Assembly: GCA_030614005.1 (NCBI GenBank)
Contig: JAUWKS010000021.1
Span: forward strand, 19,345-51,344
Direction of reading: 5' to 3'
DNA from: Candidatus Heimdallarchaeota archaeon
GTDB taxonomy: Archaea > Asgardarchaeota > Heimdallarchaeia > JABLTI01
Length of the DNA: 32,000 bases
In this document: piece by piece, positions 12,951 to 29,665 of the stretch
Position numbering within the stretch: position 1 is the stretch's first letter
Layout: the number at the start of each line of letters is the position of its first letter
Notes under the pieces: model-generated
What the model saw: only the letters and a program-made list of their open reading frames with translations
What the model was told of the DNA's origin: nothing
Database searches by the model: none
Program-made: the position numbers and the translations under genes

Positions 12951-14162
12951 TTAAACCCAATCACCAGTTTCAATCTTAGTTGGCAAGTATTCTTCAGTAA
13001 AGAATTTGATACCACGACTAGCGAGAGCTTGAATTTCGGCTTTCTGTTTGGTTTCAATCATAAGTTTAAGCTCTTTAACCCATTCAGGACGAATTTTGAC
13101 GAATTTTTCTTCCATCATAATTTTGGCTCGAGAGATATCCATCTTACTCATAGGTAATCGAGTGTTTTGGGGGAGATTATATTTATCCAAATCAGAAGGG
13201 CGGACACCCAACCATTTAATATCAGGAGTGGCTAACTCATAAGATTCGTAAGATAGAGCCTTACTACCTAATCCATAGACACGAAGTATATCAAGACCAT
13301 ATGGATCTGAATCCATTACAGCCATTACTGGTAATTGTAAATCTTGATTCATTTTTCGCAAGAATATTCTTGTTGCAACATTTGGTTGCCCGCTGCCAGT
13401 TAGAATTACGCATGGATATTTTTCATAGAATTTATCTTCTGCTAATCTCAAGAATGCTGCTTGCTTTTCTACCACCATAATGAATTCTGCATCTGATTCT
13501 AAATCAGTAATATGGTCTTGCATTGGATTGACATTTTTTCCCGCTGACCCTTGTTTTGTACAATCTATTAAATCACCGTTATCTAGATACGATACTCTTC
13601 CTACAACCAATCCTCTGTCATTTGCGGTTACATGGATGTTTTTTCGATAAGTCCCCAGAGTTACTGCGCTATCTTCAATAAGAGGATCACTTCCTCTATT
13701 TTGGTCTTCGAAGAGTGCTACATCTGTATAAAACACTTCTCTTTTGCTACCGTGAACATTCATCTCTAATAATTCGTGAATAATTTGGAGGACTCTTAAT
13801 TGCGCTGTGAACTTTTTTACGGTACCTATATCATCCCATTTTCTATCCATATAATTTTGCCCTAATAATAGCAAATCTGATGCTTCATCATAAATTACAT
13901 TACTTGCACTTCTCGAAGGAACTTTCAAGATAGGTTGTCCTGATTGTATTGTTTCAACGAATACTTTCCTGAATATTTCTTCTATTCGTCTCATTCCTTC
14001 TTCTCTATCTATATCTGCAATCTCATGAATGCCCTCAGGTAAGTCTTCAATCCTTGTTCGAGAGGTCTTTTTTAGCTCTTCTCGTACTTCAATAATATGC
14101 TTAATTTTATCTCTTGAGACTTCCCTTGGGTACTTCTCTGTTTTTCCACTTTTACTGGACAT
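12951..14162 (-). CDS. top6A: DNA topoisomerase VI subunit A
   Basis: SKREVFY (catalytic Tyr), Toprim VVEK and MDSDPYG, KAEIQAL. Confidence 0.97.
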   Translation of the reverse strand: MSSKSGKTEKYPREVSRDKIKHIIEVREELKKTSRTRIEDLPEGIHEIADIDREEGMRRIEEIFRKVFVETIQSGQPILKVPSRSASNVIYDEASDLLLLGQNYMDRKWDDIGTVKKFTAQLRVLQIIHELLEMNVHGSKREVFYTDVALFEDQNRGSDPLIEDSAVTLGTYRKNIHVTANDRGLVVGRVSYLDNGDLIDCTKQGSAGKNVNPMQDHITDLESDAEFIMVVEKQAAFLRLAEDKFYEKYPCVILTGSGQPNVATRIFLRKMNQDLQLPVMAVMDSDPYGLDILRVYGLGSKALSYESYELATPDIKWLGVRPSDLDKYNLPQNTRLPMSKMDISRAKIMMEEKFVKIRPEWVKELKLMIETKQKAEIQALASRGIKFFTEEYLPTKIETGDWV

Positions 14163-14228: not shown

Positions 14229-17200
14229 TTAGCCTTCTAGTTCAGCTGAAGTTTTTAGTGCTCTAATTATTTGTTTTCTGATGTTTTTCACTGTCTTTAC
14301 ACCTAAACCTTTGACGGTTGATGTTTTTGCTATTTTTGCACTATGGAATTGTTTTACAGTATAAATTCCTGCTTTGTTCAGCTCTTCTTGCACCATTGGT
14401 GAAACGTGAGGTAATACTGCTACAGAAAGCATTTTTCGCATTTCAATGATATCTTCCTCTTTTACTCCTTTTACTGAACCCAATCTAGCGATACTTTTCT
14501 TGAAAATATCCCCTACAGATTTTACGCCCACCTTTGCTAATCGTTCTTCTGTTGTTTTGCCCATACCAGGAATTTTACTAATTCTAAGCGTAGGTTCTAG
14601 CATTCCTTTCGGTGGTCCTCTTACAATTTTAGTGGTTTCTTCAGCTTCTGCTTTTGGCTTCTTTGTGCCTAGAAATTCAGCTATAGAAGTATCTTTCTTC
14701 TCTGGTGATTTTGCTGGTTTTTTGGTTTTTGCAGATTTTTTAGCAGGTGGTTTTTCTTTAGTTGGTGCTACTTTTGTTGGTTTCTTGGCAGGTTTTTTCT
14801 TTTTCCTAGAAGGTACGGTCTTTGAACCTGGTGTCATCAGCAGTTTTTCTTCAATATCTAATTTCAATTTTGTAATCGTTAGTGAGCGTAATCCTCTTGC
14901 ATTTGTTAAACTATCATCATCTGCTTCGAAAAATTGTTGAACAGTAAATATACCCATTAGATTCAAATCACTTTTTCCTTCAAAATTAATTCTTGGCAAC
15001 ACTATAACATCTGTATTCCCACGATTGTCAGCTATTGTTTTTGCTCCGAGGCCTTTAATCTTTAGTAAGCGACTGTTGGCAACCATATAGAATTTGGCTA
15101 CTGTTTCAATACCTTTAGCTGATAATCTCGCAGCCATCGTTTTTCCTACACCACCCAATTCTTCAACTTCAGCATCTGCTTCAAGGAAGTCCGGAGGTGG
15201 AGTGGGCATTTTGACCTTAGTGGGTTGAGTGATAATGCCTTCATCATCCATTGATTCATCAATTTCTATTTCAGAGCTTTCTTCTCTAAGATTTTCAATA
15301 TCTAAATCAAGTAATGCTTTGATCAATTCAAATAAGATAGTAACCCGTTCTTCTGATAAGCCATGCAATTTGCTTAGCTCTTCTTCATCTGCTTCAAGAA
15401 ATTCAAGTATACTATAGACTTTGTTACTATGCAATTCCTCCACAGTTTTTTGAGTAATATTTGGTAAAACATCAACATTACATTTGGATTTTAGTTCAGC
15501 TATTATAACAATATTCAAACTGCTTTTGGTAAGTTCCTCATTTTCCATTAAGAAGAAATCTTTAATTGTTTTAACACCACGAGCACGAAGTGATTTCTGA
15601 GTTGCCGGACCAACACCAGGGAGAGTTGTCACTGAATCCATTCCTTCGTAAAGGTCCATACCATCAATTATTCCTCTATCTCGAGCAAATTCATCCAGTG
15701 CTTTAGCACTCACAGATTCAACCAATTCATCTTTTGCTAGCTCAGGTAACTCAAGAATAGCAACTAGAATTTGTTCTGCTTGATCTAATGCTTCTTCAGA
15801 TAATCCAAGAGAAATTAATTCTTGCATTTGTTCATCATCGATTAAAATGAGGTCTTGCAGAGTCTGAATATCGTATCTATCAAGATTAACACCCTCAATT
15901 GAATCTATAGGTAGAGCTTCAACTGGGATGGGGTTCTTTGGGAGAAAAATCGAACCATCTCTTTGTTTTAAACAATTACTAAATTGTGTGGAACTGAACA
16001 TAAATGGAAATTCATCTTCATCCATTTTTCCAAGCATTTGTCCAACAATTGATGAAACAGTAGGGGCGTATTTATCAAAGATTTTCATTCTTCTAGCTGC
16101 TTGTTCTTTTTTCTTCAAAGCTCTTTGGAAACTCATTAGTTTCCTTCCGGCTTTTTGTAAACATAACCTAAGTTCTCTTCTAATCTCATCTACTTCAGCA
16201 ATATATTCCTTGCTTGTTTCAGGGAAGGGTATTTTTGTACTAACTAATGACACGGCAAATATTATTGGATCATTATTGAGATTGGTTTTATAGTTGGACC
16301 AATTAATACCCTCAATTGTTTTCTTTATCAAATCATTTCCTTCACCAAATAGTAAAGGTATTCTGTTTGCAAAACGCATTAATTTGTATGGTGCACTAAT
16401 GTTTTCTCCACCATATCCTATAGCAACTTCAACCTGAAAAGCATGTCCACTGTAGCTTGAAGGTGGTCTGCCTTCTGAACAGCTGAATTCGGGTTGGTAA
16501 ACATCTTCCAAACCGGCTGCTAAATTTTCATGCCCTAATGGTGACAAACATTTACCATCGGGTGGGAAAAATTTAACCTTGGTAAATCCTTCATGAATTA
16601 ATCTTCGAAGCTCCATTTCATCTAAATTCAGGGGGTTTTTACTTGCCTTAATTTTAGATACTTTTAGAACTTGGGCTGCAGTTTTATCACCGATTCTCTG
16701 AAAATGGGTTTTCAAAAAATTCTTCATATCTTTACATTTTGTTCTAGAAATCTCGCTTTTTATTTGATTAATATCTGTACCAATTGGATGCAGTGGTACT
16801 TCAATTGGTGGTTCAGGAATTTCATCAACAGTTCTAGTATGAAAGATAGGTTCATCGGGATTGTCAGGAGTAGTAATAGTGAATGAAGCATATGGTGTTA
16901 TAACAGCCATTTCTTCTAAGTATTCAAAGATATATCTTTTGGAGCGTCTCCAAGTGCCTGCAAAACAACAAGTAACTTCTGTTCCATGTACTTTTAGTTG
17001 GTTCTTTGATTTACCAGAATATTTTGTTGAATCAACGATTTCAGGAGCGTTCTTAACAATATCAATAAACAATTTGTAATGACTGGTAAATTCAGCTGAT
17101 TTTTTCTTAGAAAGAGCTAATCGTGATTTAATTTCAAATGGAACTCGAATAGTTGATTGAGAATAAATTAAAACCATTTTTGCTCCTAAGCCGAAGCGAC

Positions 17201-17570
17201 CGCGTGATTGTCGTTCTCCATAATTGGAACCAGTAAGTACTCTTCCAAATAATTTTGGAATGTCAGCATGACGAATGCCAATTCCATTATCTCGTACAGA
17301 CAATCGAATGAATTCATTACCAGATTCCTCGTCGTGTCTGTAATCTTCAATACCCATTAACTCGCCGATTTCTTCTGCAGACATCAATTCGATTAGAATA
17401 TTGATATCAGGTAGAATTCCCCCTTTTTCAGCAGCATCTAATGCATTTTCGACTAGTTCTCTTATGCTTGTATAAGTAGATCTGGTAGGATTATCAAATC
17501 CTGCAATTGCTTTATTTGCTTCAAAGAATTCTGCAGCAGACCTTTCTATTATTTTCTCACGCGCTATCAT
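14229..17570 (-). CDS. top6B: DNA topoisomerase VI subunit B with a long C-terminal HhH-repeat extension
   Basis: GHKL motifs RELVENALDA, VRDNGIGI, SRGRFGLGAK and HGTEV; H2TH (FQRIGDKTA); transducer RFANRIPL. About 570 extra aa carry repeated GxG-type HhH motifs. Confidence 0.96.
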   Translation of the reverse strand: MIAREKIIERSAAEFFEANKAIAGFDNPTRSTYTSIRELVENALDAAEKGGILPDINILIELMSAEEIGELMGIEDYRHDEESGNEFIRLSVRDNGIGIRHADIPKLFGRVLTGSNYGERQSRGRFGLGAKMVLIYSQSTIRVPFEIKSRLALSKKKSAEFTSHYKLFIDIVKNAPEIVDSTKYSGKSKNQLKVHGTEVTCCFAGTWRRSKRYIFEYLEEMAVITPYASFTITTPDNPDEPIFHTRTVDEIPEPPIEVPLHPIGTDINQIKSEISRTKCKDMKNFLKTHFQRIGDKTAAQVLKVSKIKASKNPLNLDEMELRRLIHEGFTKVKFFPPDGKCLSPLGHENLAAGLEDVYQPEFSCSEGRPPSSYSGHAFQVEVAIGYGGENISAPYKLMRFANRIPLLFGEGNDLIKKTIEGINWSNYKTNLNNDPIIFAVSLVSTKIPFPETSKEYIAEVDEIRRELRLCLQKAGRKLMSFQRALKKKEQAARRMKIFDKYAPTVSSIVGQMLGKMDEDEFPFMFSSTQFSNCLKQRDGSIFLPKNPIPVEALPIDSIEGVNLDRYDIQTLQDLILIDDEQMQELISLGLSEEALDQAEQILVAILELPELAKDELVESVSAKALDEFARDRGIIDGMDLYEGMDSVTTLPGVGPATQKSLRARGVKTIKDFFLMENEELTKSSLNIVIIAELKSKCNVDVLPNITQKTVEELHSNKVYSILEFLEADEEELSKLHGLSEERVTILFELIKALLDLDIENLREESSEIEIDESMDDEGIITQPTKVKMPTPPPDFLEADAEVEELGGVGKTMAARLSAKGIETVAKFYMVANSRLLKIKGLGAKTIADNRGNTDVIVLPRINFEGKSDLNLMGIFTVQQFFEADDDSLTNARGLRSLTITKLKLDIEEKLLMTPGSKTVPSRKKKKPAKKPTKVAPTKEKPPAKKSAKTKKPAKSPEKKDTSIAEFLGTKKPKAEAEETTKIVRGPPKGMLEPTLRISKIPGMGKTTEERLAKVGVKSVGDIFKKSIARLGSVKGVKEEDIIEMRKMLSVAVLPHVSPMVQEELNKAGIYTVKQFHSAKIAKTSTVKGLGVKTVKNIRKQIIRALKTSAELEG

Positions 17571-17607
17571 TTCTAATGAACCTACTAGCCACCTTAATTT
17601 TTACTAA

Positions 17608-17877
17608 AAGGACAAGCTTGACACTATGTCCTTCTCTACATCCACCCGGGAATCCCTTCCACCTAGGGATTATTTTCTTATTTCAGATGCCTCTGAAAGA
17701 GTGAATTAAGAGCGAGTTTTGATTCAAATACTAAATTTAATTTCTTAAACTTATTGCTGTTGAATCCGCTCAAATTTCGTCCTTCATTATTTCACTTTCT
17801 CATTTCAAAGGGTTCTTTAATACTTTACCGTTCAAGCAAATTATCTTAATAACATTCAATTGTTAAACTACAATTGA
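17608..17877 (-). ncRNA. Candidate structured RNA downstream of the RAMP operon
   Basis: Five stems: 17608-14/17627-33, 17651-57/17665-71, 17681-87/17692-98, 17710-27/17760-71 (bulged) and 17856-63/17870-77. GC is 31/60 in 17611-17670. Strand and transcription are inferred. Confidence 0.35.
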
Positions 17878-17887
17878 TATACTCTGC

Positions 17888-18904
17888 CTATGTTCCGAGC
17901 CTTCTCTTCTTCGAGGTGGTTGCCCTCTCAGAGTCAGCATTGCTCATGGTCAAAGAAGAATGCATCTCAGCATCCATAGCAGTATCAAGTTCTTCTCTTT
18001 TACTTGCCGATAGTGAGATAGTTCCTTTTGATATTTTTAATCTTTTCTTATAGTAATCATTTATTGCCAGATTTACCATTAGCAACAAATGGTTTCTTAA
18101 ACTACTAATTCCATAATCCATTGATTCCACTATTCGCTCTAATTCTTTTGAATGATAGATGTAATTATATAATCTATATGGAGAATGTTGAACTTGCTCA
18201 AGGTCTTGTTTTAAAAGTTTGAAATCTATTTCTCCATTCTCCCGATTATATCGACTTGGAACTTTGAATCGCTTCTTTCTACTGATTGAAGATGCAAGTC
18301 TATCGTAATACTGCAAAATTGGCAAGAGAGCATTTGTATGTTCTGCACCATTATGATGATTCACACAAGCAGTTCTAATTTCTTCATCTTCGATTTGTAA
18401 CTCTTGATAGATTTTACTTGGATGTCGCTCTGTATGAACGAAATCGTGAAGCATTAATACTTTAAGTAATTTTAACAATTTTTCAGGATAATTTACCCCT
18501 AATCCTTTCCTAATTTTGAATTCCTTTCTTTGGTTCGCTTTCGTATGAATAAAGGACTCAATTTTACATTCAAGCCATTTCACTCGACCGAAACCTTCAG
18601 AGGAATAACTGCCAAGAAAACGATTGGTCATAAAGGAAGAAATTTTGGTAAGAAGCTTCTCTGTATTATACCCTACACAGCTCACTTGCACAAATCCTCG
18701 ATAGGCATGTAAAACGGTCGGTGCTCTTGATTCCCCTTTCACCAATTTGCTAAAGGAAGTCAATAGTGGTTTTTTTTCTCCGTTACGATCTCCTATTACC
18801 TTTATCCAACAAGCTCCTTTCTTCACGAGTGGTTTGGAAAGGATGATTGGTGTATCTAAGCGACCAATTAATGTAACCTTTTTCTTTAATTGTGGTTCTG
18901 CCAA
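17888..18904 (-). CDS. RAMP (Cas5-like) domain fused to a Cas10-type HD nuclease fragment
   Basis: N-terminal ~120 aa end in a RAMP glycine-rich loop (FLGSYSSEGFGRV). HD motifs follow (LMLHDF...VNHH...YYDRLASS), then SSLRNHLLLMVNLA, which resembles the Cas10/Cmr2 'SL-x-DH' segment. No palm or GGDD. The TTG start overlaps the cas7 stop. Confidence 0.75.
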   Translation of the reverse strand: MAEPQLKKKVTLIGRLDTPIILSKPLVKKGACWIKVIGDRNGEKKPLLTSFSKLVKGESRAPTVLHAYRGFVQVSCVGYNTEKLLTKISSFMTNRFLGSYSSEGFGRVKWLECKIESFIHTKANQRKEFKIRKGLGVNYPEKLLKLLKVLMLHDFVHTERHPSKIYQELQIEDEEIRTACVNHHNGAEHTNALLPILQYYDRLASSISRKKRFKVPSRYNRENGEIDFKLLKQDLEQVQHSPYRLYNYIYHSKELERIVESMDYGISSLRNHLLLMVNLAINDYYKKRLKISKGTISLSASKREELDTAMDAEMHSSLTMSNADSERATTSKKRRLGT

Positions 18905-19830
18905 GCCTTTCTCACCTTGCTTAATTCTTCGTTCAAGTTCTCCGCTCTTTCTTCCTCAATGATAGCGATTTTTCCATTACCATTCTCTTGTCCCAACTTT
19001 CTCTCAAAAACAACCCTTTCAAAAGAAATGTCTCTCATCTCAAGACGACCATACCCGCTTTTTCCGCCTCTTCCTAAATGAGTTATTCCGAAAATTCCTT
19101 TTACGAGTAATCCTAGCAACCATTGCGGTAATTCTTTAGAGAATTCCACATAGAATTGAAACTCTCCGGAGAAATATTGTTCAGAGAAATCCTGAAGTGG
19201 TTTTTTGTCTCTTCTGGATGAGTGGCGATTCTCTGTTGAAATATACACAAATGAAAGACCGGTTTGTTTGGTTATTTTGTCCAATGGTTTGTCTGTCTGA
19301 ATGATAGCATCGCTCCAGACTCTAATAGGGGATTCTTCACCTAACATTCCGAATAATTGTCTAATGGCACAAGGATTTTCTCCACAAGCACCCATGAGAT
19401 GTTCGTGTTCAAGAAGAGTCGATTTACCAGTTCCTTGAAATCTTTCCTTTAAAGTTGGAGAACAATAATCAATTCCTTTCTGGTGAAGAATATTCATTAT
19501 ACTATGACGAATAGCACCACGTATTCCTTTAACCACTCGAGAGACTCCTTTATCATCTTTGAGGATTGTTAGTTGGACTTTCGCATCAGCTTTTTTCCCT
19601 TCTGCTTTTACTCGCAAATCATTGAAATCATCAAAGATACTATCTTTGTTTTGTCTCAAGAAATCCTCTAATTCTGCTACTTTAACATTGGTCTTTCCAA
19701 TATATTGGTAGGGTATTTCTCCTCCTCTCATCAAGTAAGAGCTTTTTCCACTACTACTATTCAGTGGTTTCGCCCACCACGCTTGAACTTTTACTGATAT
19801 TCTGTTGAACTCGTTTTTCATAATAATCAT
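18886..19830 (-). CDS. cas7: Cas7-group RAMP protein (Csm3/Cmr4-like)
   Basis: KGIRGAIRH (the 'SSLKGALR' helix), ACGENPCAIRQLFG (Zn-binding C..C..LFG), thumb region ENRHSSRRDK, and G-loop HLGRGGKSGYGRL. Confidence 0.86.
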   Translation of the reverse strand: MIIMKNEFNRISVKVQAWWAKPLNSSSGKSSYLMRGGEIPYQYIGKTNVKVAELEDFLRQNKDSIFDDFNDLRVKAEGKKADAKVQLTILKDDKGVSRVVKGIRGAIRHSIMNILHQKGIDYCSPTLKERFQGTGKSTLLEHEHLMGACGENPCAIRQLFGMLGEESPIRVWSDAIIQTDKPLDKITKQTGLSFVYISTENRHSSRRDKKPLQDFSEQYFSGEFQFYVEFSKELPQWLLGLLVKGIFGITHLGRGGKSGYGRLEMRDISFERVVFERKLGQENGNGKIAIIEEERAENLNEELSKVRKAWQNHN

Positions 19831-19920
19831 TCCGTATATACAAAAATATATACAAAAGATAACATATAAACGTACCTAATAAGCAGCTTTTAATAATATA
19901 TAAGTCAATAATTTATTATT
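19831..19920. promoter_or_regulatory. Divergent promoter region between cas7 and abrB with an 11-bp tandem repeat
   Basis: 90-bp AT-rich spacer with TATATACAAAA at 19835-19845 and 19847-19857, plus TATA-like TATATAAG near 19897. Confidence 0.45.
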
Positions 19921-20106
19921 ATGAACAAAGATCAAGATTCAGAAACCTTTCTGAAGAAAAAATACAAACTTACTAAAGTAGGAAATTCATTCAAAATAAC
20001 TTTACCAGTTGATTTTGTGAAAGGATTTGGGTTTGAAGAAGGGGAAGATCTAACAATAGCAATTGATATTGCAAATAAACGTTTTATTATAACTAAAGAG
20101 GAGTAA
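19921..20106 (+). CDS. AbrB/MazE/SpoVT-family DNA-binding protein
   Basis: 61 aa, KLTKVGNSFKITLPVDFVKGFGFEEGEDLTIAID, the typical swapped-hairpin pattern; ends 2 nt before the next gene. Confidence 0.82.
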   Translation: MNKDQDSETFLKKKYKLTKVGNSFKITLPVDFVKGFGFEEGEDLTIAIDIANKRFIITKEE

Positions 20107-20108
20107 TT

Positions 20109-21302
20109 ATGTCTATTGACAATATTTTAGGACAGATTAAACTAGCGGAAGAAAATCTCTTCGAAGAAGATCGACATAAAAGACAAGAGGCAATTCATAC
20201 ATTTCCTCGAATTTTAAATGCTAGAAATTATACAGTAAGAGAAGCATTGAGAGTAAAAGGACTAATTAAACCAATTATCCCAAAACTTATTGAGATAATG
20301 AAAACTGATGCTGATATTGGTTTACGCAAAATTGCTGCAAAATCTTTAGGTGATATGCCAATCTATGATGGTATCTACAAAGAGTTGCTTGAGATTTTTA
20401 AGCTTGGAGAGATGGAGAATGAATTAAGTTGGGCGGTAGGTGAGAAATTATTTAATTTTCCAGATTCTTATCTTGATATCAAAGAAATACTTCTTGAGAT
20501 GCTACAATCGAATAACCATAATCATAGAATACTAGGTTTAGCAATGATTCGAAAATATCGGGAAAGCTCAGGTCGTTCAGGAAACGAATATCTAGGTTCT
20601 GTTTCAAGAATTCAACTTGAGAAGGATTGGTTACTAATTCTCCGTAATTTAGTCCGAGAGGCTAAAACTGAAGAAGATGCTCAACCTGCCTATGTTACTC
20701 TTGAAAAAATCTCTCCCGATAAATCAGCTGAACGAAAATTATTCCAGAAGGAATTATTATACAAAGTTATGTATGAAATTCTTGTCAAAATCCAACCTGA
20801 AATCCAAGTGCAGTTAACTAGAATTATGGAATTAACAACTCCTCTAATACAAGAACATGGTAAAATCCCCAAAAGAGCTGAATTAACTAACCTTGATTAT
20901 ACCAAAGAACTCCATGAGGCGACAATAAAGGAACTTGTTCAAAACGAAGATATCAAAGGAGAGTATTTTGAATTGGAGCAAGTTTTTGTCAAAAAAGGCA
21001 AAGAAATAAAGTTTTCCTTGACTTCATCCAAAATTGCTAAGAAATATTTGTGCAACAATTGTGGTTCCTCTATTAAGCATGAGGATCAAACTTGTTCAAC
21101 CTGTAAAGAAGAAATCCTCAAATGTAATGTTTGCAAACTGCCAATTTCCTTTGGAGAAGAAATAGGTATATGTAAACATTGTAAATCTAAGTCTCATTTG
21201 AGCCATCTTCAAGAATGGGTGAAAATAAAGGGAAAATGCCCCACTTGTCAAAAAAAGTTGCAGTCGGAAGAGATTATAACACTTTCTAAGAACTCAAACT
21301 AA
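20109..21302 (+). CDS. HEAT-repeat protein with C-terminal zinc ribbon and RING-like domain
   Basis: HEAT-like units (DADIGLRKIAAKSLGDM, NHNHRILGLAMIRK), then CNNC...CSTC and CNVCKLPI...CKHC...HLSH..EW...CPTC. Confidence 0.75.
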   Translation: MSIDNILGQIKLAEENLFEEDRHKRQEAIHTFPRILNARNYTVREALRVKGLIKPIIPKLIEIMKTDADIGLRKIAAKSLGDMPIYDGIYKELLEIFKLGEMENELSWAVGEKLFNFPDSYLDIKEILLEMLQSNNHNHRILGLAMIRKYRESSGRSGNEYLGSVSRIQLEKDWLLILRNLVREAKTEEDAQPAYVTLEKISPDKSAERKLFQKELLYKVMYEILVKIQPEIQVQLTRIMELTTPLIQEHGKIPKRAELTNLDYTKELHEATIKELVQNEDIKGEYFELEQVFVKKGKEIKFSLTSSKIAKKYLCNNCGSSIKHEDQTCSTCKEEILKCNVCKLPISFGEEIGICKHCKSKSHLSHLQEWVKIKGKCPTCQKKLQSEEIITLSKNSN

Positions 21303-21365
21303 GGGGCACTTAAGTAAGGAAAAAATTAGTACAATACTGATATTAACCTGTAAGAGAGAATAATT

Positions 21366-22937
21366 TTGCTAAAGCCACTTTCTTGGACAAATGACCCATT
21401 ATTATTTGATAGTGAACCTTCTCCAGTTAATAAGTGGATAAATGCTAATGAGCTTATTCAACAGAACCGGAGTAAAGAGATTTTTCTCCCAGAAAGTCAA
21501 CAGTTACATCTCTATCCTATAATGGTTCGTAGGAATGATTTTGTTCGGTTGAAATCTTCTGACCGAATCATGGCTCGATTTCCATTCATGGAAATTAGCG
21601 AGGAAAGTCAAGAACGAATCATGGATAAGATCCTTCTTCTCTCTGAATTAACTCGAGACTACTTTTACAAATCTATCAATAAATCAATTCTTCAATGGAA
21701 AGAGGACATTCTAAGATATCTAAAGCGAGGAGCAATTCCTTATCCAATAGTAAGGAGTTTCTTCGAATTAGAACCAAGTTTTTTTTCTATGTATAATAAG
21801 ACCTCTCTTCACTTCACAAGTGCTCGTGGAGAAGAGTTCAAGATGCCGACCACATTAACGAAAGAGCTTGCCTATCTTGCGGGGATGGTCAATGGTGATG
21901 GTAACTTGCAAAAATATACTCTACGAATCGTCGACTTTTCCATTACGAATATCAAGCAGCTCCAAAAGATGTTCCAGGATTATTTCGCACAAACAGGGAA
22001 CATTCTCTTTAAAACACCCAACAGTCCGGAAGTAGTGATAACGAATCTCTGGGTGGTAAGGTTATTCTCATTCTTAACAGGACAACCAATTGTAATGAAG
22101 AAGTATGCCCATCTAGGTGAACCATTGATCTTCAAACAAGAGCTTTATCGTTCCTATTACTGGTCTGGAGTGATGGATGCAGATGGGAGTTACAGGAATA
22201 GGAATGTTAAATTTGTAAGTGCTTCTATAAAGTACGTAAAAGATTTCAAAAAATTTCTTTTTGAAAATAAAATAGACTCTAAATTGACTGAGAGAGAGGA
22301 TAATACAGTTATCTTGTACATCCCAGCTAGATTCTATACACAGTTATCGAAATTGTTGACTTGTTTACACCCAGAAAAGAAACACGAGTTTAATAAATTG
22401 AAAATAACTCCCTATCGCTCAGCAACTTTTTTTGCGGGATTCAAAAAATCAACTCTAGTCAATGGTTATTTCAATTTCAGACTTATAGGTAATCTAAGTG
22501 TAGCTAATTTAGGAGACACAATTCGTCAATTCCGAGGAAAACAATCAAGAAAAGCTTTTATCGAAAAAGTATCTATTAGTGAAAGAGCATTACAAAATAT
22601 AGAAAAAGGGAAAATGAGTATAAACATTCTGCTTTTAGATGAAATATTAAAACAAAGAAACCAACTGCTGATGTCTTTTCTCTCTCAACAAGAAGCAAGT
22701 CTTTATCACATTCGAAGTTCAACACCTGTGAAACTCGCTACACAACCGAACACACAGCTCGCATCTCTACTGAAATCATTACTCTTTTACAAGAAATGTC
22801 TCAAAATTCCGAATAGTAGCGATAAACTTGCTAAAGAACTAAAAGCTTATTTTCAAGTAACTATAAAAAACAATCAAATAACCAACAAATTACTTTTACT
22901 ATTCTTTTCTACTTTTTGTGAGACAAAACTTTTCTAA
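21366..22937 (+). CDS. Free-standing double-LAGLIDADG endonuclease-like protein with an XRE-type HTH
   Basis: LAYLAGMVNGDG and YWSGVMDADGS motifs; HTH segment LGDTIRQFRG..SRKAFIEKVSISERALQNIEKG; no intein splice-junction motifs seen. Confidence 0.85.
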   Translation: MLKPLSWTNDPLLFDSEPSPVNKWINANELIQQNRSKEIFLPESQQLHLYPIMVRRNDFVRLKSSDRIMARFPFMEISEESQERIMDKILLLSELTRDYFYKSINKSILQWKEDILRYLKRGAIPYPIVRSFFELEPSFFSMYNKTSLHFTSARGEEFKMPTTLTKELAYLAGMVNGDGNLQKYTLRIVDFSITNIKQLQKMFQDYFAQTGNILFKTPNSPEVVITNLWVVRLFSFLTGQPIVMKKYAHLGEPLIFKQELYRSYYWSGVMDADGSYRNRNVKFVSASIKYVKDFKKFLFENKIDSKLTEREDNTVILYIPARFYTQLSKLLTCLHPEKKHEFNKLKITPYRSATFFAGFKKSTLVNGYFNFRLIGNLSVANLGDTIRQFRGKQSRKAFIEKVSISERALQNIEKGKMSINILLLDEILKQRNQLLMSFLSQQEASLYHIRSSTPVKLATQPNTQLASLLKSLLFYKKCLKIPNSSDKLAKELKAYFQVTIKNNQITNKLLLLFFSTFCETKLF

Positions 22938-23025
22938 AATTCTGATAAAATATTAGAAAAAATAGGAATAAACTGAACTTCAAATTTACCTAATGTACAA
23001 GAGGGGTATTTCGAGGCATTTTTGG

Positions 23026-23057
23026 GCTTTAAAATGACTTTCTTGCTGTTTTAAAGC
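23026..23057. repeat. 9-bp perfect inverted repeat (possible operator or hairpin)
   Basis: GCTTTAAAA (23026-34), a 14-nt spacer, then TTTTAAAGC (23049-57). Confidence 0.5.
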
Positions 23058-23088
23058 ACTTAGAATCGACCTTTGATTTATGCTTTCA

Positions 23089-23192
23089 GACTTTTTTGCG
23101 AGAAGTGGTTTTTTCTCATATTCTAGTTATTCCTCGGTAAGTTTTATGATTTTTTTGTGAGTAATCTGTGAGCTTTTTGGACTTTTTTGTGA
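23089..23192 (+). repeat. Three copies of the 13-bp motif GAYTTTTTTGYGA
   Basis: GACTTTTTTGCGA at 23089-23101, GATTTTTTTGTGA at 23148-23160 and GACTTTTTTGTGA at 23180-23192, upstream of the wHTH-cas1 operon. Confidence 0.7.
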
Positions 23193-23242
23193 TTTAGTAC
23201 TTTAAATGGTAATTTTGTCAAGTAAATGAACAAGGGATATTT

Positions 23243-23983
23243 ATGTCGATTCATGATCCATTGATTCTAAAAACAAGTTCGAAGTATTCATTACCTGAAT
23301 TTAACTCTAAGGTTAAATTCACTTCTGTAATGGAAGAAGTGCTGTACACACTCTTAACTTTCTTCATCCTAAGTGGTGAATCAAAATTTACAAATGTGGT
23401 GAATGATTTGATAGGTGTACTTGATCGTTCCCAAAATGCTATTGGCTCTGCCTTAAAATCTCTTGAACAGTTGGAGCTACTAGCTTATTATCGAGATGGT
23501 AGATTTAGAACCGTCGAACTACATCTAGAAAATGATTTCCTGAAAAGCGTTACTGCAAGATTCTTTGGAATAACTGATTTTACGAGTATGAAATGCAAGA
23601 AATTGAAGCAAATGCTCTTTGGTTTTTATCCAATACTTGATTTTGAGCGAACCATGACAATGTTTCAAAACGAAACTGAGCGTTTGGTTTTGTTGGTGGA
23701 TGATTACCAACACTTGTTTGATTGGGTTAATAAAATTGAGGAATTGGAAAGATTAGCGAAAATTACTCACTCTACTGATGATACTGTTGATGACAATCCA
23801 ATTTTATTATTTATCGATAAAATTGTATGTGCGATAAAATATAAAAAAATGCAACAAACTGCTGATCTAACATTTCAAGAATTATCTGAAATCGTTAATG
23901 AGATTGTTTCAGAATTTCAAAAAATTCCTCCTTGGTCAAATGATGCTGTAAGTGGAAGGTGTAATATTTGGACTCACATATAG
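23243..23983 (+). CDS. Winged-HTH domain protein
   Basis: FTNVVNDLIGVLDRSQNAIGSALKSLEQLELLAYYRDGRFRTVEL wHTH pattern with a helical C-terminus; overlaps the next gene by 16 nt. Confidence 0.68.
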   Translation: MSIHDPLILKTSSKYSLPEFNSKVKFTSVMEEVLYTLLTFFILSGESKFTNVVNDLIGVLDRSQNAIGSALKSLEQLELLAYYRDGRFRTVELHLENDFLKSVTARFFGITDFTSMKCKKLKQMLFGFYPILDFERTMTMFQNETERLVLLVDDYQHLFDWVNKIEELERLAKITHSTDDTVDDNPILLFIDKIVCAIKYKKMQQTADLTFQELSEIVNEIVSEFQKIPPWSNDAVSGRCNIWTHI

Positions 23984-25986
23984 GAGGATTTGTTGTGAGT
24001 TATACAAAAAACGAGCTCAGAGAACGAATTTTCTCACTTTTCACTCAGGATGAGATCGGCATGGTTGGTCTCTCTAACAGAGAAGTTTCAGAACTAATTG
24101 GCAAGGAATCGAAGGATACCAATCAAGTATTGAAGGGATTAGCTGATGCTGGCAGGTTATCACGCAAGAAGATTAAACGTGGTGTTGATCCAAAAGTTTT
24201 CGTTTACTTTTCACCATCTTTTGAAGTAATTGATGAAGCTCCCGAAAGGCTTTGTAATAACTGCCAAAGACTATCTGGTTTAGAGAAATGTATTTTGCTT
24301 AGATTAGTAAAAGAAACAGCTGCTTGGGCTTTACGTGATGACTTAAAAGCACGTGCAAATGCAATTAGTTTGTTAGGTGTTGAAGGTTGTGACTTTCATG
24401 ATCCTAGACAAAAAGGTCAGTGTAAGTGTAAAACGATGAAGGATTTTCTCAACACTAATACTGATCCTGTTACCTTTGAAGTTCGTTGCCCTATAGATCG
24501 ATGCCGTGAAGTCATTGATGAGCTCAGTATTTCTCTAGAAAAAAAGAACATAGGTGCGAACACTTTGTATTGTCCTCATTGTGGTTCTCCTATCAATTTC
24601 ACCTTCAACCATAGTTTAGGGAGATACAATGTTCAATACTATGATAGTCGTTTTGATATTATGCAACGAGATTATAAACTGATCACAGGTATGGATCTTG
24701 AGAGTAGGTATGTTTCAGATCGTTCCCATGGTTTTTCTCTTGTAAAAGAAGAGAGTTTTCATCTTGATTTAGAGAATAATGAAACTATCTATATTGGAAA
24801 TGAATTAACCCCTACTGAGTTTATAGATTCAAAAGATCTTGCTTATTTTTCTTTGAATCAATTGGATTACATAGCGGTAAAGGATGCTGATGATTATCTC
24901 TATCTAAGAGACAAATTGCATGAAATTGATCCTGCGACAAATAAATCTCTCTATTATAATATTGAGCTTTTACACTCAAGTAAACCAATTGAGAGTACAG
25001 AACCGTCATTAAAGGAAATCGGTGGTAATGAGATTCTAATCGCAACAGGAGCAATATTCTTTCCGATGTTTTTCTCCAATATTCTTGACCGGAGAGCAGT
25101 TCTTAAAAAGAAAATGGTTGATATGACAGATACTGAATTTCGAAGTGATTTCAAAAGCGCTCTAGCACGTTTTGATAGGAATATCAAGAAATATCGCACT
25201 CCTTGGAACATTTCCTCTCGAGAATGGCAACAGAATGAAGGTGGTTTTGCTAGCCTAATGGACACTCCATTCAAACAAGAAGCTGAGAAATATGGATTCG
25301 AGAATCTTTCGAGAGAGAAATCTAGGATGGTCCGAGGGGAACCTTTCATGCATTATGGATTATTCACTGCTCGAGCACCTAAAGCGAGTTTTGAAAATGG
25401 TGTGAATAAAGTAACTGATAGATACATTAAGGAAAAAATCTATAATGATCTTTCTGTTCCGTGGAATGATTTGCGAGGATGGTGCCATAGAAAATACTCC
25501 TTTGGTTTGTTTCTGGATTATATTGAACCACCTAGAGCAGTTGCACCATTATGGATAAATGAAGCTATTAGAAATAAAGAGATCACTCCGAATGATTTTA
25601 AGATAGAGCGAGGAAAAAGGTTTGAGAAATTCTATTATATTAAACCTAATTCTCATGCACACGAAGTTGTGAAACGAGTAAGCAATCAAATTCTCTGCAC
25701 AAGATTTACTCTTACTACTGGCTCGGAGCTTACAATGAAACAGATGATAGAGAAATCTGTTACTCAATTAAAACAACTCTTAAATCGACTTTCTAACTCT
25801 ACTGTTGAATTATTTACAGAAAACAGAATAAATGGTCCTGTAAAGACCATCTGGAAGAAACTACAAGAAACAAACAACAAGAACTACTTGACTGCCAAAG
25901 AATATCAAATGTTACAAAAACATGTTCAACATTTCTTCCGAGAAGAATTTTCTTTTGAACCTTATACAATTGCTGAGATTCAGTAG
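23968..25986 (+). CDS. cas1: Highly diverged Cas1-family integrase with N-terminal wHTH and Cys-rich Zn-binding region
   Basis: C-terminal half has QNEGGFA (Glu codon 25237-39) and RGWCHRKYSFGLFLDYIEPPR. His (25486-88), Asp at +10 and Glu at +13 match the E. coli Cas1 H208/D218/D221 spacing. N-terminus has a wHTH and CNNC, CDFH, CKC, CPIDRC and CPHC motifs. Confidence 0.8.
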   Translation: MDSHIGGFVVSYTKNELRERIFSLFTQDEIGMVGLSNREVSELIGKESKDTNQVLKGLADAGRLSRKKIKRGVDPKVFVYFSPSFEVIDEAPERLCNNCQRLSGLEKCILLRLVKETAAWALRDDLKARANAISLLGVEGCDFHDPRQKGQCKCKTMKDFLNTNTDPVTFEVRCPIDRCREVIDELSISLEKKNIGANTLYCPHCGSPINFTFNHSLGRYNVQYYDSRFDIMQRDYKLITGMDLESRYVSDRSHGFSLVKEESFHLDLENNETIYIGNELTPTEFIDSKDLAYFSLNQLDYIAVKDADDYLYLRDKLHEIDPATNKSLYYNIELLHSSKPIESTEPSLKEIGGNEILIATGAIFFPMFFSNILDRRAVLKKKMVDMTDTEFRSDFKSALARFDRNIKKYRTPWNISSREWQQNEGGFASLMDTPFKQEAEKYGFENLSREKSRMVRGEPFMHYGLFTARAPKASFENGVNKVTDRYIKEKIYNDLSVPWNDLRGWCHRKYSFGLFLDYIEPPRAVAPLWINEAIRNKEITPNDFKIERGKRFEKFYYIKPNSHAHEVVKRVSNQILCTRFTLTTGSELTMKQMIEKSVTQLKQLLNRLSNSTVELFTENRINGPVKTIWKKLQETNNKNYLTAKEYQMLQKHVQHFFREEFSFEPYTIAEIQ

Positions 25987-25998
25987 GATGATGAGAAA

Positions 25999-26685
25999 AT
26001 GACAAAAAAACATGCAACCATAACAATATATGATTCTCTAAGAGATTTGAATAGAGTTATTGCTCTTATACTGGTAGATGGTGATTCAAGAATTCGAATA
26101 ATGGAAAATAGGCTCAACTATAGATCTGTTTTACACAAAGTTGTTTCTAAAGGATTCATTCGTACACATGAGATAGTTACTAATTGGCTAATAGAATTAT
26201 TTGAAAATGGGGAAACAACTTCTCTAACGTTTCATGAGATAATGGATAAACTACCTTGGTCCTGGGATACGACTCGAGAGTACTTTGATTCTTTAGAAGA
26301 AGAAGGTATTGTACAATATTCACGTGATTCTCAAGGAAGAAAAATTTGCACCTTAACAATTGAAAGTGAGTCTAGAGCAAAGCAGATAGATAATTTGCTC
26401 AAGTTTTCTAAAAGAAATGAAACACACTCACTAAATACTATTTCAGAAGCAAGAAAGGAATTTGCCAAGTATAATACAAAATTGAATGAATGGTTTTGTA
26501 TGAACTATAAAATGAATGATCTGAGTTCTCAGATTAAGCAAGCCCCATTATCTACAGTTGAAAAATTCATCGAGACTATAACCAAAATAATCAATATATC
26601 CAAAGAAGAAGATCTAAGATTGAATCTATTAGACTTTTTGAAGCAATACCCATTATTGCTATATTCAATAAGGAAGGTTGAGTAG
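25999..26685 (+). CDS. Winged-HTH domain protein
   Basis: SLTFHEIMDKLPWSWDTTREYFDSLEEEGIVQYSRDSQGRKICTL wHTH pattern; operonic spacing (12 nt upstream, 2 nt downstream). Confidence 0.68.
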   Translation: MTKKHATITIYDSLRDLNRVIALILVDGDSRIRIMENRLNYRSVLHKVVSKGFIRTHEIVTNWLIELFENGETTSLTFHEIMDKLPWSWDTTREYFDSLEEEGIVQYSRDSQGRKICTLTIESESRAKQIDNLLKFSKRNETHSLNTISEARKEFAKYNTKLNEWFCMNYKMNDLSSQIKQAPLSTVEKFIETITKIINISKEEDLRLNLLDFLKQYPLLLYSIRKVE

Positions 26686-26687
26686 AT

Positions 26688-27452
26688 TTGGTAGTCAGGG
26701 AGTACGAATTAAATCTTAGTGCAACAGAATTTCTATATTTTCTAGATTGCCCCCAGAAATTCAGAATTTATCGTATCCTTAATCCTTTACCATACAAAGA
26801 AAATTTCTTGAGTAGTAGAAGGTCATTATCTTCTTACAAAATGCGAGGATACCAGGGAAAGAAGAGTGATGGTATCGATTATCATAATTTCTTTGAAACA
26901 TTTCATAGAAAGTATGCAAATGTAATCAGTCAAACAATACCCCCAGATGAAGTATGCAAGGACAATGTAAAATTACTTTACTGGACTGAACAACAGAAAA
27001 ACTACTTTACAGCAAAAGAGGATTGTTACTGGTATCCAATTGATAAAGAAATTCGATTAATGACTGAAAAGAAAAGAGGGGTGATAGATTGTATAGAATT
27101 ATGTGAAAAAAGGAATGGTTTTAGGATTATAGATTATAAACCAACATTTGATTCCAATGATCATCTTCTATTGCTGTTTTATGCAAGTTTATTCAACGAA
27201 TATCGCTTAGAGAATAAAGATGAAGGAGAATATGATTTTGATGTTTTGGAGGTTGGTTGTTATTATTATGAAATGGGTGTAAGAAAGGTCTATAATTTGA
27301 AAGAAGTAAACATTTTAGCATTTGAAAGAATTTTTGTTAAGTCATTGGAAAAAATTCTTAATAATGAATTCTTTTTAGATAAAAGCTCTTGTTGGGGTTG
27401 TATTTTCATACGTATCTGTAAGATAGAAAAGAGTAGAGAATATAGATCTTGA
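26688..27452 (+). CDS. cas4: Cas4-like PD-(D/E)xK nuclease with Fe-S ligands
   Basis: N-terminal CPQKF plus C-terminal CWGCIFIRIC give four Cys; GIDYH; E.RL...RGVID; IIDYK. The QxxxY motif is degenerate (LLLFY). Confidence 0.85.
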   Translation: MVVREYELNLSATEFLYFLDCPQKFRIYRILNPLPYKENFLSSRRSLSSYKMRGYQGKKSDGIDYHNFFETFHRKYANVISQTIPPDEVCKDNVKLLYWTEQQKNYFTAKEDCYWYPIDKEIRLMTEKKRGVIDCIELCEKRNGFRIIDYKPTFDSNDHLLLLFYASLFNEYRLENKDEGEYDFDVLEVGCYYYEMGVRKVYNLKEVNILAFERIFVKSLEKILNNEFFLDKSSCWGCIFIRICKIEKSREYRS

Positions 27453-27505: not shown

Positions 27506-28100
27506 CTATTTCTTGATTTCTTCAATAATTGGCACTATACCTTCCAATGGCATATTTTGTAAACAGTTTGGACATGTACCTTGTGTTTTCACCTACTCTT
27601 GTAGATGTTTCAGATGGCTCTTTGCTTCACATAAAGAGCATTTACCAATTTCTTCAGCAAAGGAGATTGGAAGTTTGCATACAGAGCATGTAAGTATTTC
27701 CTTTTGGCAGCTGGAGCATTTTTTCGAAGCAAAATTATCAATAATATTTCCACAAGAATTACAAGAATATATTCTAATGGTTGAAATTGGCTTTTTAATT
27801 AAATCTTGAATAATGCCATCAGTTTTCTCTTTCTTAATGAAAACTTGTTCATATGGTTTATACTCACCTAATTCAGGTTTTTCTTCAAGAATTTCCTTGA
27901 TTAGCTCTTCAACGATTTCCTTTGGAACAGAAGATAATTCAACGATACGAGGTAAGAGCATAGGAATATTAGGAGTAACCTTCAAAAGAATATCTAAGAT
28001 TATTTTATAACTAATTTGTTTTTTCTTTTGTTTTATTGCTTCATAGTATGGATAAGCAAATTTTTCAACATCAGAATAACCTTTTTTCACAGCGAATGTA
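27506..28100 (-). pseudogene. Zinc-ribbon/RING protein remnant with in-frame TAG and missing 5' end
   Basis: Homologous to the C-terminal ~180 aa of 20109-21302. TAG at 27593-95 replaces the Trp of HLQEW, and the frame continues VKTQGTCPNCLQNM...KK to a stop at 27506-08. The annotated start region (28101-28162) is antisense to the FG-GAP gene. Confidence 0.8.
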
Positions 28101-28847
28101 ATTATTGCAGATTTATATAACGACGGTGAAATAGAGATAATTTTCGGTTCTGAAAATAGCAATATAATCTGTCTAAACAGTCAAGGGAAAAAACAATGGT
28201 CATATAGTACAGATGATTGGATATTTTCTTCACCGGCAATATATGATTTAGATAAAGATGGCTATAAGGAAATTTTAATCGGTTCTTATGATAAAAACAT
28301 CTACTGTTTAAATTATGATGGTTCTTTGTCTTGGAAATTTGCCACTGATAATCTAATTTTCTCCTCTCCCTCTGTTACTGATTTAGAGAATGATGGATTT
28401 ATGGAAATTCTTTGTGGTTCTGATGACAATTATCTTTATTGTTTGGATTATTTGGGTAAAGAAATTTGGTCGTATAAAACAGATAATATGATTTTTTCCA
28501 GCCCTTTAATTGCTGATATTAATAATGATGATTTGTCGGAAATAATCATCTGTTCTACAGACAATTTCGTTTATTCCTTATCTCTAACAGGTGTTTCTCA
28601 ATCAGGGGATAACCCTTGGTATTGTTTCAGAGGTTCTATTCTCCATACCGGGTGGATGGATTCTGACAATGATTTCATAGATGATCTAACTGAAAGCTAT
28701 CTTAGTGATCCCGATTATCCTCTTACGAACAACATCTTCCCCTCATTTGACTTGTCAAATAAGAACTCAATAATAGTAGTAACTCTGGTATCCATAACAC
28801 TAATATATATACTTCGAACGAAGAGAAAAAGAAAACGCTTCGTTTAA
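28101..28847 (+). pseudogene. FG-GAP/VCBS-like beta-propeller surface protein, 5'-truncated
   Basis: The frame is open from 28080 with no start until 28326. Four repeats: ADLYNDGEIEIIFGS, YDLDKDGYKEILIGS, TDLENDGFMEILCGS and ADINNDDLSEIIICS. It has a W.CFRG...HTG motif and a C-terminal TM plus KRKRK, but no signal peptide. Confidence 0.78.
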
Positions 28848-29376: not shown

Positions 29377-29665
29377 GTTCATTCTTCCCTTTCTTTTTTT
29401 ATAGCGATAAAAATCATGTTAATACAAAAAAATTTCAATAACAAAAAATGCTTTCATACTCCCAATTCTAAGTGTCCATTTCTTAATATTTAACCTTTCA
29501 AGTGAAGCAAAACAAGGAATAGGAAAAATGTCAAACACATGACTTTTGTCCCCCGACACAAACAGTTTTTTTGGGAAATGGTTAAATAATATCATCAGTT
29601 TCGTAATTCTGATTACTTTTCTCTGGAGAGAGAGAAAATCTAAGAAAGAAAAAGGATGTATTATT

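Follow-up and report, generated by a model that had tools for sequence, protein, structure and literature searches.

A Cas7-like protein and a RAMP-HD fusion in an Asgard archaeal locus, with a candidate companion RNA at the 3′ end of the fusion gene

The ARAMP class of CRISPR derivatives was reportedly described by Makarova, Wolf, Shmakov, Liu, Li and Koonin in 2020 (CRISPR J 3:156). Later summaries place these derivatives in many Asgard archaea, as distant relatives of HRAMP with diverged Cas5 and Cas7 proteins and, in most cases, a distinct Cas1 (PMC8730458), and characterize them as array-less, type III-derived 'miniature' systems with HNH or PD-(D/E)xK nucleases (PMC12669027). HRAMP (Makarova et al. 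2019) is also array-less, and its diverged Cas5 and Cas7 are accompanied by nucleases of the HNH type and by other proteins that are uncharacterised (PMC8730458). The two are the most reduced relatives of CRISPR effectors known. According to the latest classification, RNA binding by ARAMP and HRAMP is unclear, and RNA-binding members would constitute new CRISPR types (PMC12669027). We analyzed a stretch of 32,000 nucleotides (nt), hereafter the window, from the Asgard archaeon Candidatus Heimdallarchaeota archaeon (contig JAUWKS010000021.1, positions 19,345 to 51,344), with a low GC content of ~35%. The locus contains a minimal protein set, consisting of a Cas7-like protein, P0002, and a Cas5-like RAMP that bears the HD domain of Cas10 alone, P0001, and a conserved structured element lies at the 3′ end of the P0001 gene. 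We consider it likely that the pair provides the core proteins of an ARAMP-type module, a miniaturised type III effector derivative without an array, and that a structured RNA is its third component. A literature search for Cas5-HD or Asgard RAMP systems, which did not extend to the original ARAMP and HRAMP papers, found nothing.

The two genes, the domains of P0001 and the element share one strand:
18886–19830, minus strand: Cas7-like RAMP protein P0002, 314 residues, predicted backbone subunit (open reading frame (ORF), profile and fold)
17888–18904, minus strand: RAMP-HD fusion protein P0001, 338 residues, TTG start (ORF, homologues and AlphaFold 2 (AF2) model)
18530–18904, minus strand: small, tentatively Cas5-like RAMP domain with a G-rich loop, P0001 residues 1–125 (structure matches)
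18005–18487, minus strand: predicted Cas10-type HD nuclease domain, P0001 residues 140–300, with LHD, H161, HH, D201 and SLRNH (structure and profile)
17880–18019, minus strand: candidate companion RNA, a conserved structured element that includes the final ~130 nt of the RAMP-HD ORF with the TAG stop
17856–17877, minus strand: 3′ hairpin after CAUAGGCAGAG (paralogue comparison)

Both ORFs lie where an earlier inspection of the letters without database searches (the sequence-only reading) had placed them, and all the motifs it quoted are present in P0001: FLGSYSSEGFGRV (res. 96–108), LHD (res. 152–154), HH (res. 183–184), DRLAS (res. 201–205) and SLRNH (res. 268–272). Its observation that the P0001 start overlaps the cas7 stop also held, with the TTG codon located 19 nt before the stop of the upstream ORF and the reading frames overlapping by 19 nt. 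This start is genuine, because P0001 homologues begin with Met (MAETQL...) at the equivalent aligned position and because the two genes of a relative locus, L001 (9087–10019 and 10001–11044), overlap by an identical 19 nt. Throughout, C denotes contigs of the source genome (G000), with C67 that of the window, L denotes fetched neighborhoods, and G306 and G396 are other Asgard genomes. The Cas7-like gene directly precedes the RAMP-HD gene in 18 of 20 clustered fetched neighborhoods and in all seven copies in the source genome, whose intact pairs are that of the window, four on C9 and one each on C122 and C83. P0001 has homologues in more than 120 clusters, the named ones from Heimdall-, Thor-, Hod- and Promethearchaeota metagenome-assembled genomes (MAGs). 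The breadth of this family, together with an above-threshold match of the upstream gene to Pfam RAMPs, puts the gene pair far beyond chance.

P0002 was predicted by AF2 with a mean local confidence (pLDDT) of 87.7 and adopts a Cas7 fold. Its best structural match in VIA-align is chain 8bmw_I of an SsoCsm entry (Z 13.8), followed by chains from type IV-A, I-D, III-E and VII entries (Z 12.2–12.9). All 32 chains that match at Z ≥ 8 come from CRISPR-Cas entries, as expected from the earlier identification of the upstream protein as Cas7. Sequence profiles agree, with 28.3 bits to Pfam RAMPs (PF03787; gathering cut-off 22.1) and 2.9e-7 to the PADLOC Csm3 profile. A 20-sequence alignment of the family identifies K21, R104, G105, H144, C149 and C154 as invariant, and contains a conserved Cys/His cluster (C123, H144, C149, C154) and no invariant Asp. 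As judged from this sequence alignment, the loop after strand 1, where RNA-cleaving Cas7 proteins of the Csm3/Cmr4 type have their catalytic Asp, carries the invariant K21 and the near-invariant N24.

P0001 consists of two domains, with a pLDDT of 81.9 overall and ~30 in residues 301–338. Residues 4–126 fold into one RRM-like RAMP domain, which VIA-align matches to 9g9a_G (Z 8.1), a 302-residue chain of an Enterococcus Csm complex, and to 7xfz_B (Z 7.5), 6s6b_I (Z 7.3) and 8rc2_F (Z 7.0), chains from type IV-A and Cmr entries. Foldseek finds similar chains in Csm and type VII effector entries at E ~1e-4, and the domain has a weak match to the PADLOC Cas5_IIId profile (E 0.048). We tentatively describe this domain as Cas5-like. 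Its G-loop residues G98, G104 and G106 are invariant in 22 homologues with identities down to 34%. P0001 has no match among Pfam and NCBIfam families, and a sequence profile search against solved structures returned a single match at chance level, which was discarded.

The HD domain of P0001 is of the Cas10/Csm1 N-terminal type and probably not of the Cas3 type. Residues 140–302 match the N-termini of Csm1/Cas10 in VIA-align (6ifk_A, chain residues 2–231, Z 8.3; 6mua_A, chain residues 1–221, Z 8.0), and no Cas3-titled or generic HD-protein entry occurs among the 50 structural matches listed for P0001. Sequence profiles were compared using 10 Asgard Cas10 genes and 16 Asgard Cas3 genes from whole-genome searches. 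The P0001-family HD domain aligns in hhalign with the Cas10 N-termini at 74% probability (E 2.9e-5) over 73 columns spanning the LHD, HH and D motifs, against 5% probability and 11 columns around the HD motif for Cas3, the HD domains of Cas3 and Cas10 being themselves related. The ten Cas10 N-termini have the motif order LLHDIGK..H..HH..D..R..SLxxH..AAIA, matched in the P0001 family by LHDF..H..HH..D..R..SLRNH..NLA. The putative metal ligands H153, D154, H161, H183, H184, D201 and H272 are invariant across the 22 homologues, seven of which match Pfam HD weakly. No Palm domain was found in P0001, whose chain ends after the HD domain. The sequence-only reading had described a RAMP of ~120 residues joined to just the HD end of a Cas10-like protein, without palm domains, and had asked for the Cas10 and Cas3 profiles to be compared and for the HD residues to be checked among homologues. 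The matches to Csm, Csf and Cmr subunits (Z 8.1–7.0) and to Csm1, the motif order with its trailing SLxxH, the hhalign result and the invariant His and Asp residues all agree with that description, and with its inference of a stripped type III derivative that has lost its signaling domains. In three RAMP-HD paralogues on C9 (62994–64094, 96887–97993 and 155474–156574; proteins P0018, P0021 and P0036), an insert of ~35 residues between the RAMP and HD domains forms a CxxC...CxxC zinc ribbon that matches zinc-ribbon families in Pfam.

A model of the P0001–P0002 complex supports binding between the two proteins. The interface score (ipSAE) is 0.65, with 0.65–0.68 in three runs, and the best control scores 0.00; the mark that it passes is reached by 58 of 80 solved complexes and by 2 of 110 mismatched pairs. 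The runs have at least 54% of contacts in common, and the partner pLDDT is at least 69. Every confident contact of P0001 with P0002 falls within the RAMP domain. The pass may reflect likeness to known structures, since solved Csm complexes show similar RAMP–RAMP contacts between Csm3 and Csm4. The predicted interaction is in line with the complex of the two proteins that the sequence-only reading had anticipated.

The structured element overlaps the end of the RAMP-HD gene and is more conserved than the gene itself. Among the four closest paralogues, all six pairwise comparisons give a higher DNA identity for the element (79–91%) than for the gene body (59–79%). This conservation is independent of the reading frame: three genes (C122, L045 and L048b) stop earlier, and their similarity continues to the common CATAGGCAGAG. 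In C83, L049 and L051 the entire element follows the stop codon, and two solo copies (C94:2288–2428 and C9:140370–140510) are preceded by a short gene remnant only. RNAalifold, applied to an alignment of 18 sequences, folds the element into two multi-helix domains with 28 pairs, in which 92.7% of cells are paired. Twelve pairs are changed on both sides, compared with 5.9 in column shuffles, none of 500 shuffles reaching 12, and pairing falls to 31–43% when the partners are slid. Directly after CAUAGGCAGAG, a hairpin of 6–8 bp follows in 14 of the 18 copies, with a different stem sequence in each. Most Heimdall-type copies also have a short conserved motif, (U)UGGUGAUA / UAGGUGAC, after this variable hairpin (for example, L001:11070–11081). 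The motif resembles the AAGUGAUA that ends the G306-type element, and the window copy has no clean match to it.

For each of the seven RAMP-HD genes in the source genome, a covariance model of the element, R1, detects it at the 3′ end or just past it; the model also finds the two solo copies and recovers copies outside its training set (C9:121826, C83:3599, L049 and L051). Matches of R1 in the class are confined to the source's family of genomes and one other, and at least 17 of them coincide with independently found RAMP-HD 3′ ends. No Rfam match was obtained anywhere in the window. The RAMP-HD proteins of the Loki-type lineage G306 have no tail beyond the HD domain, and the non-coding DNA before and after the gene contains a structured element of ~125 nt. 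Its 26 copies in that genome are mostly paired, ~1.1 kb apart, on both sides of RAMP-HD genes. This element has 96% pairing, falling to 42–51% when slid, and seven doubly changed pairs. The G306 and Heimdall-type elements have the motifs CAUGAG, GAGAGG-N7-CCUC, AxAGGC and GUGAUA in common. Cross-detection is marginal and at the right places, with R1 finding two G306 elements at E 0.16–0.22 and R2 one Heimdall-type element at E 0.13, so that the case for homology of the two RNA types rests on common motifs and position. From these sequence features, the two elements are likely to descend from a common ancestor.

The limits of the element were set by comparison of paralogues. The intergenic region 17571–17887 folds somewhat better than shuffles (z −2.4), and its far-downstream hairpins were considered as a conserved part of the module and rejected, because the similarity among paralogues ends ~45 nt past the stop; the conserved part is therefore 17856–18019 only. 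A functional role for the conserved C-terminal peptide (DAEMH...KKRRLGT) was also considered, and is less likely than its being a by-product of the RNA element. The 38-residue tail of P0001 is disordered in the model, early stops occur with DNA conservation continuing past them, and elsewhere the element lies outside the ORF; translation through an RNA gene is thus the best reading of this tail. It follows that the functional module would consist of two proteins and the element, which, judging from its sequence, is probably the companion RNA of the module. The 'two-gene effector' of the sequence-only reading was correct for the Cas7 and RAMP-HD genes, which are real, and incomplete for the structured element that overlaps the RAMP-HD 3′ end.

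The RAMP-HD family occurs in 40 of 399 Asgard genomes, and its homologues are confined to Asgard archaea. The spread is patchy, with 8 of 10 genomes in the source genus, 17 of 22 in another and 0 of 135 in the largest family. The gene is multi-copy, and related genomes contain numerous fragments interrupted by in-frame stops. No CRISPR array was found in the window, nor, by a k-mer spacing scan, in the source assembly (3.6 Mb, 90% complete), which also contains no match to the Pfam Cas1 and Cas6 families or to the Csm1 family (TIGR02578). The RAMP-family matches in the source genome are four of the family's own Cas7-like genes and no other RAMP. Sampled genera rich in the pair mostly lack both Csm1 and Cas3-HD (0 of 10 for both in g16; 0 of 2 and 1 of 2 in g1), a co-absence that is a correlation among kin genomes, matches to these families being present in many other Asgard genera.

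These data suggest how the module may work. P0002 would be the Cas7 backbone subunit and P0001 a half-size Cas5-like RAMP with a Cas10 HD domain lacking Palm/cyclase domains, the loss of which makes cyclic-oligoadenylate signaling impossible. A structured RNA of ~140–165 nt, encoded on the same strand across the end of the RAMP-HD ORF, would be the third component and would derive from the 3′-terminal part of the operon transcript. On this RNA, the Cas5-like domain would assemble with at least one Cas7 subunit, the RAMP domains making the contacts between the proteins, and the resulting ribonucleoprotein would recognize a nucleic acid, with the HD site cutting single-stranded DNA or RNA in the manner of the Cas10 HD domain. 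In the absence of an array and a canonical adaptation module, specificity would not be acquired but set permanently, either by the built-in RNA or by protein. The patchy, multi-copy and fast-decaying distribution, together with variable nuclease and helicase neighbors, suggests a role in defense or mobile-element conflict. More tentatively, and with somewhat less than an even chance in our estimate, ARAMP modules in general may be ribonucleoproteins in which a structured, non-CRISPR RNA dedicated to the module takes the place of the CRISPR RNA (crRNA); as part of the same proposal, the gene for this RNA would lie at the 3′ end of the Cas5-HD gene or within that end, and in Loki-type lineages would flank the Cas5-HD gene.

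Several points weigh against this interpretation. The Cas5 label is weak, as Cas7-like chains score about equally against the P0001 RAMP domain in VIA-align, and genuine Cas5 proteins contain two RRM domains, where P0001 has a single one. The absence of an array is made less certain by a MAG that is 90% complete, and CRISPR arrays often fail to assemble. None of the unpaired segments of the element is hypervariable, as a guide would be; ~12 nt between the two domains vary. A stable transcript of the element, assembly of the proteins on it and cleavage by the HD domain are inferred. The assignment to ARAMP rests on the summaries in PMC8730458 and PMC12669027, which themselves disagree, the latter describing ARAMP without adaptation modules and the former with a distinct Cas1 in most. 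If the assignment is correct, the module belongs to an already described class, and what the locus adds to this class is an HD domain of clear Cas10 type and the coordinates of a candidate RNA partner.

The region upstream of the pair contains a divergent promoter region and a set of genes that recurs beside other pairs:
19831–19920 (repeat 19835–19857), no strand assigned: divergent promoter region with tandem TATATACAAAAA, between the cas7-like and AbrB-like starts
19921–20106, plus strand: AbrB/MazE-fold small protein, 61 residues, divergently transcribed (Pfam PF04014, 28 bits, cut-off 24.7)
21366–22937, plus strand: LAGLIDADG-like and helix-turn-helix (HTH) protein, 523 residues (Pfam LAGLIDADG_3, 1e-5; Atlas matches agree)
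23243–23983 and 25999–26685: HTH proteins on either side of the Cas1-like gene
23968–25986, plus strand: diverged Cas1-like protein, 672 residues (PADLOC Cas1, E 5.5e-5, C-terminal part)
26688–27452, plus strand: PD-(D/E)xK (Cas4-like) nuclease, 254 residues, co-occurring with the Cas1-like gene (Pfam PDDEXK_1, 1.2e-9)

A PF04014 gene is also found upstream of the pair in L001, and weak tblastn matches to the AbrB-like gene (E 0.003–0.008) occupy the equivalent position in L001, L046, C9a and C9d. The AbrB/MazE-fold protein is likely a regulator of the cassette in the window's sub-clade. The LAGLIDADG/HTH gene is the commonest neighbor of the pair in the genus, adjoining four of the seven copies in the source genome and those of L046–L051, and its product may belong to the module itself or to a mobile element carrying the module. 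About 13 further copies of this protein are encoded in the genome, and it adjoins some pairs without a Cas1-like gene. The divergent operon of the window (20109–27452) consists of the set LAGLIDADG/HTH, HTH, Cas1-like, HTH and PD-(D/E)xK, and paralogous sets adjoin three of the seven pairs (window, C9 and C122). The linkage of the Cas1-like gene and the nuclease recurs in the genus (L047–L049), and no Cas1-like gene was detected near pairs of other lineages among the fetched neighborhoods. The 672-residue Cas1-like protein has no match to Pfam Cas_Cas1. In G306 (L052–L056), a 1323-residue superfamily 2 (DEAD/ResIII) helicase precedes the pair in four of five loci, and a GIY-YIG nuclease sometimes follows. 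In G396 (L061–L063), two or three Cas7-like genes, or a fused double Cas7-like ORF of 555 residues, precede the RAMP-HD gene, and a GC-rich conserved segment comes after it.

Other genes of the window were also annotated. A 397-residue protein (20109–21302, plus strand) has a C-terminal double zinc-ribbon/RING-like domain with at least 12 paralogous copies genome-wide, one of which lies beyond the Cas1-like operon at ~27527–28150 (ORF 27593–28162, minus strand). A stretch of ~1.5 kb at ~29423–30904 is 86% identical to one located ~11 kb from the C9d pair and belongs to a repeated gene (587-residue ORF, 29546–31309). On the other side of the pair, the topoisomerase VI B subunit (14229–17570, minus strand; 1113 residues) has a long C-terminal region of repeated helix-hairpin-helix-like modules with a Lys/Pro-rich linker, and is followed by Topo VI A at 12951–14162.

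The main rival to a companion RNA is that the element is a feature acting in cis, such as a terminator or mRNA stability element, an autoregulatory mRNA site, or a DNA site for recombination or integration by the Cas1-like integrase, and that the proteins either have no RNA of their own or act on different ones. The element is always on the gene strand, at the 3′ end of the transcript and with a hairpin after it; a repeated DNA site would be consistent with the solo copies and with loci that have several copies, and Cas1-like genes are nearby in the genus. Its ~140 nt, two multi-helix domains and compensatory changes are nonetheless far beyond what a terminator needs, the G306 element is also found upstream of the RAMP-HD gene, most pairs outside the genus have no detectable Cas1-like neighbor, and RAMP proteins are RNA binders. 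We therefore regard a cis-regulatory or DNA-level site as unlikely. A further rival is that the pair is an orphan effector that borrows crRNAs in trans from arrays elsewhere in the genome, as proposed for subtype III-G. Seven copies, each with its own conserved element, argue for self-sufficiency, no array was found in 3.6 Mb, no Cas6, Cas1, Cas10 or other RAMP was found in the source genome, and Csm1 and Cas3-HD are missing from most of the sampled pair-rich genera. Even granting that the MAG is incomplete, that arrays assemble poorly and that array-less type III subtypes probably using trans crRNAs have been described (PMC12669027), we hold borrowing of crRNAs to be very improbable.

A toxin–antitoxin or abortive infection system, with the HD nuclease as a toxin restrained by the Cas7-like protein, the RNA or both, and with the AbrB/MazE-fold protein as regulator, would account for the conservation of the MazE/AbrB-fold gene upstream in the sub-clade, for the tight linkage of the RNA element to the nuclease gene and for a module that is multi-copy, patchy and often decayed. 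We give it equally little credence, because the AbrB-like gene was undetected beside pairs of most lineages, the architecture and the modeled contacts are those of a CRISPR effector backbone, and there is no sign of toxicity. That the genes are functionless, decaying remnants of a former type III locus is hardly credible: the many fragments with in-frame stops in related genomes are set against intact ORFs with catalytic and G-loop residues invariant down to 34% identity, a gene order kept across classes, seven intact pairs in one genome and confident models of both proteins. An ARAMP-type effector derivative with a structured RNA partner thus remains the explanation that we favor.

The proposal of a dedicated RNA, if true, would answer the question raised in the 2025 classification about the interaction of ARAMP with RNA, and would make these modules a new, RNA-dependent kind of type III-derived system with no need of an array or adaptation. 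A nuclease complex of two proteins and one RNA from the archaeal relatives of eukaryotes would be of interest as a compact tool and in tracing the reduction of CRISPR effectors. The availability of a structured RNA candidate with coordinates makes the ARAMP–RNA question directly testable.

For TnpB and IscB, the structured non-coding omega-RNA is encoded at the 3′ end of its own nuclease gene, with which it overlaps. As a functional analogy only, the element described here is also a structured RNA candidate that overlaps the 3′ end of a nuclease gene, whereas the proteins are unrelated and neither transposon ends nor a guide segment was identified at this locus. Other reduced type III systems similarly keep the HD nuclease and have lost cyclic-oligoadenylate signaling; they use a separate large subunit and array-derived crRNAs (in cis or trans), whereas in the present module the HD domain is part of the Cas5-like subunit and no array was found. 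With the type III Csm and Cmr complexes, the module has in common the Cas7 fold, a RAMP with a G-loop, an HD domain whose fold and motifs follow Cas10, and a predicted contact like that of Csm4 with Csm3. It differs from them in lacking Palm/cyclase domains, Cas11, Cas6, an array and CARF effectors, in the fusion of the HD domain to a Cas5-like RAMP half the size of Csm4 and not to a large subunit, and in a Cas7-like family whose alignment has no invariant Asp. HRAMP, compared by description, resembles the module in its array-less, diverged Cas5 and Cas7 with accessory nucleases, and differs as a haloarchaeal group with HNH-type nucleases and additional proteins. The closest likeness in the later summaries is to ARAMP, which is confined to Asgard archaea and array-less, has diverged Cas7 and Cas5 nearest to type III, and is frequently linked to a distinct Cas1 and a PD-(D/E)xK nuclease, as at 26688–27452 in the window, with GIY-YIG the nuclease in G306. 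The source genome departs from the ARAMP summaries in having a Cas1-like gene beside three of seven pairs only, where the summaries say most loci, and, RNA use by ARAMP being unclear (PMC12669027), in the conserved structured element that accompanies every copy here.

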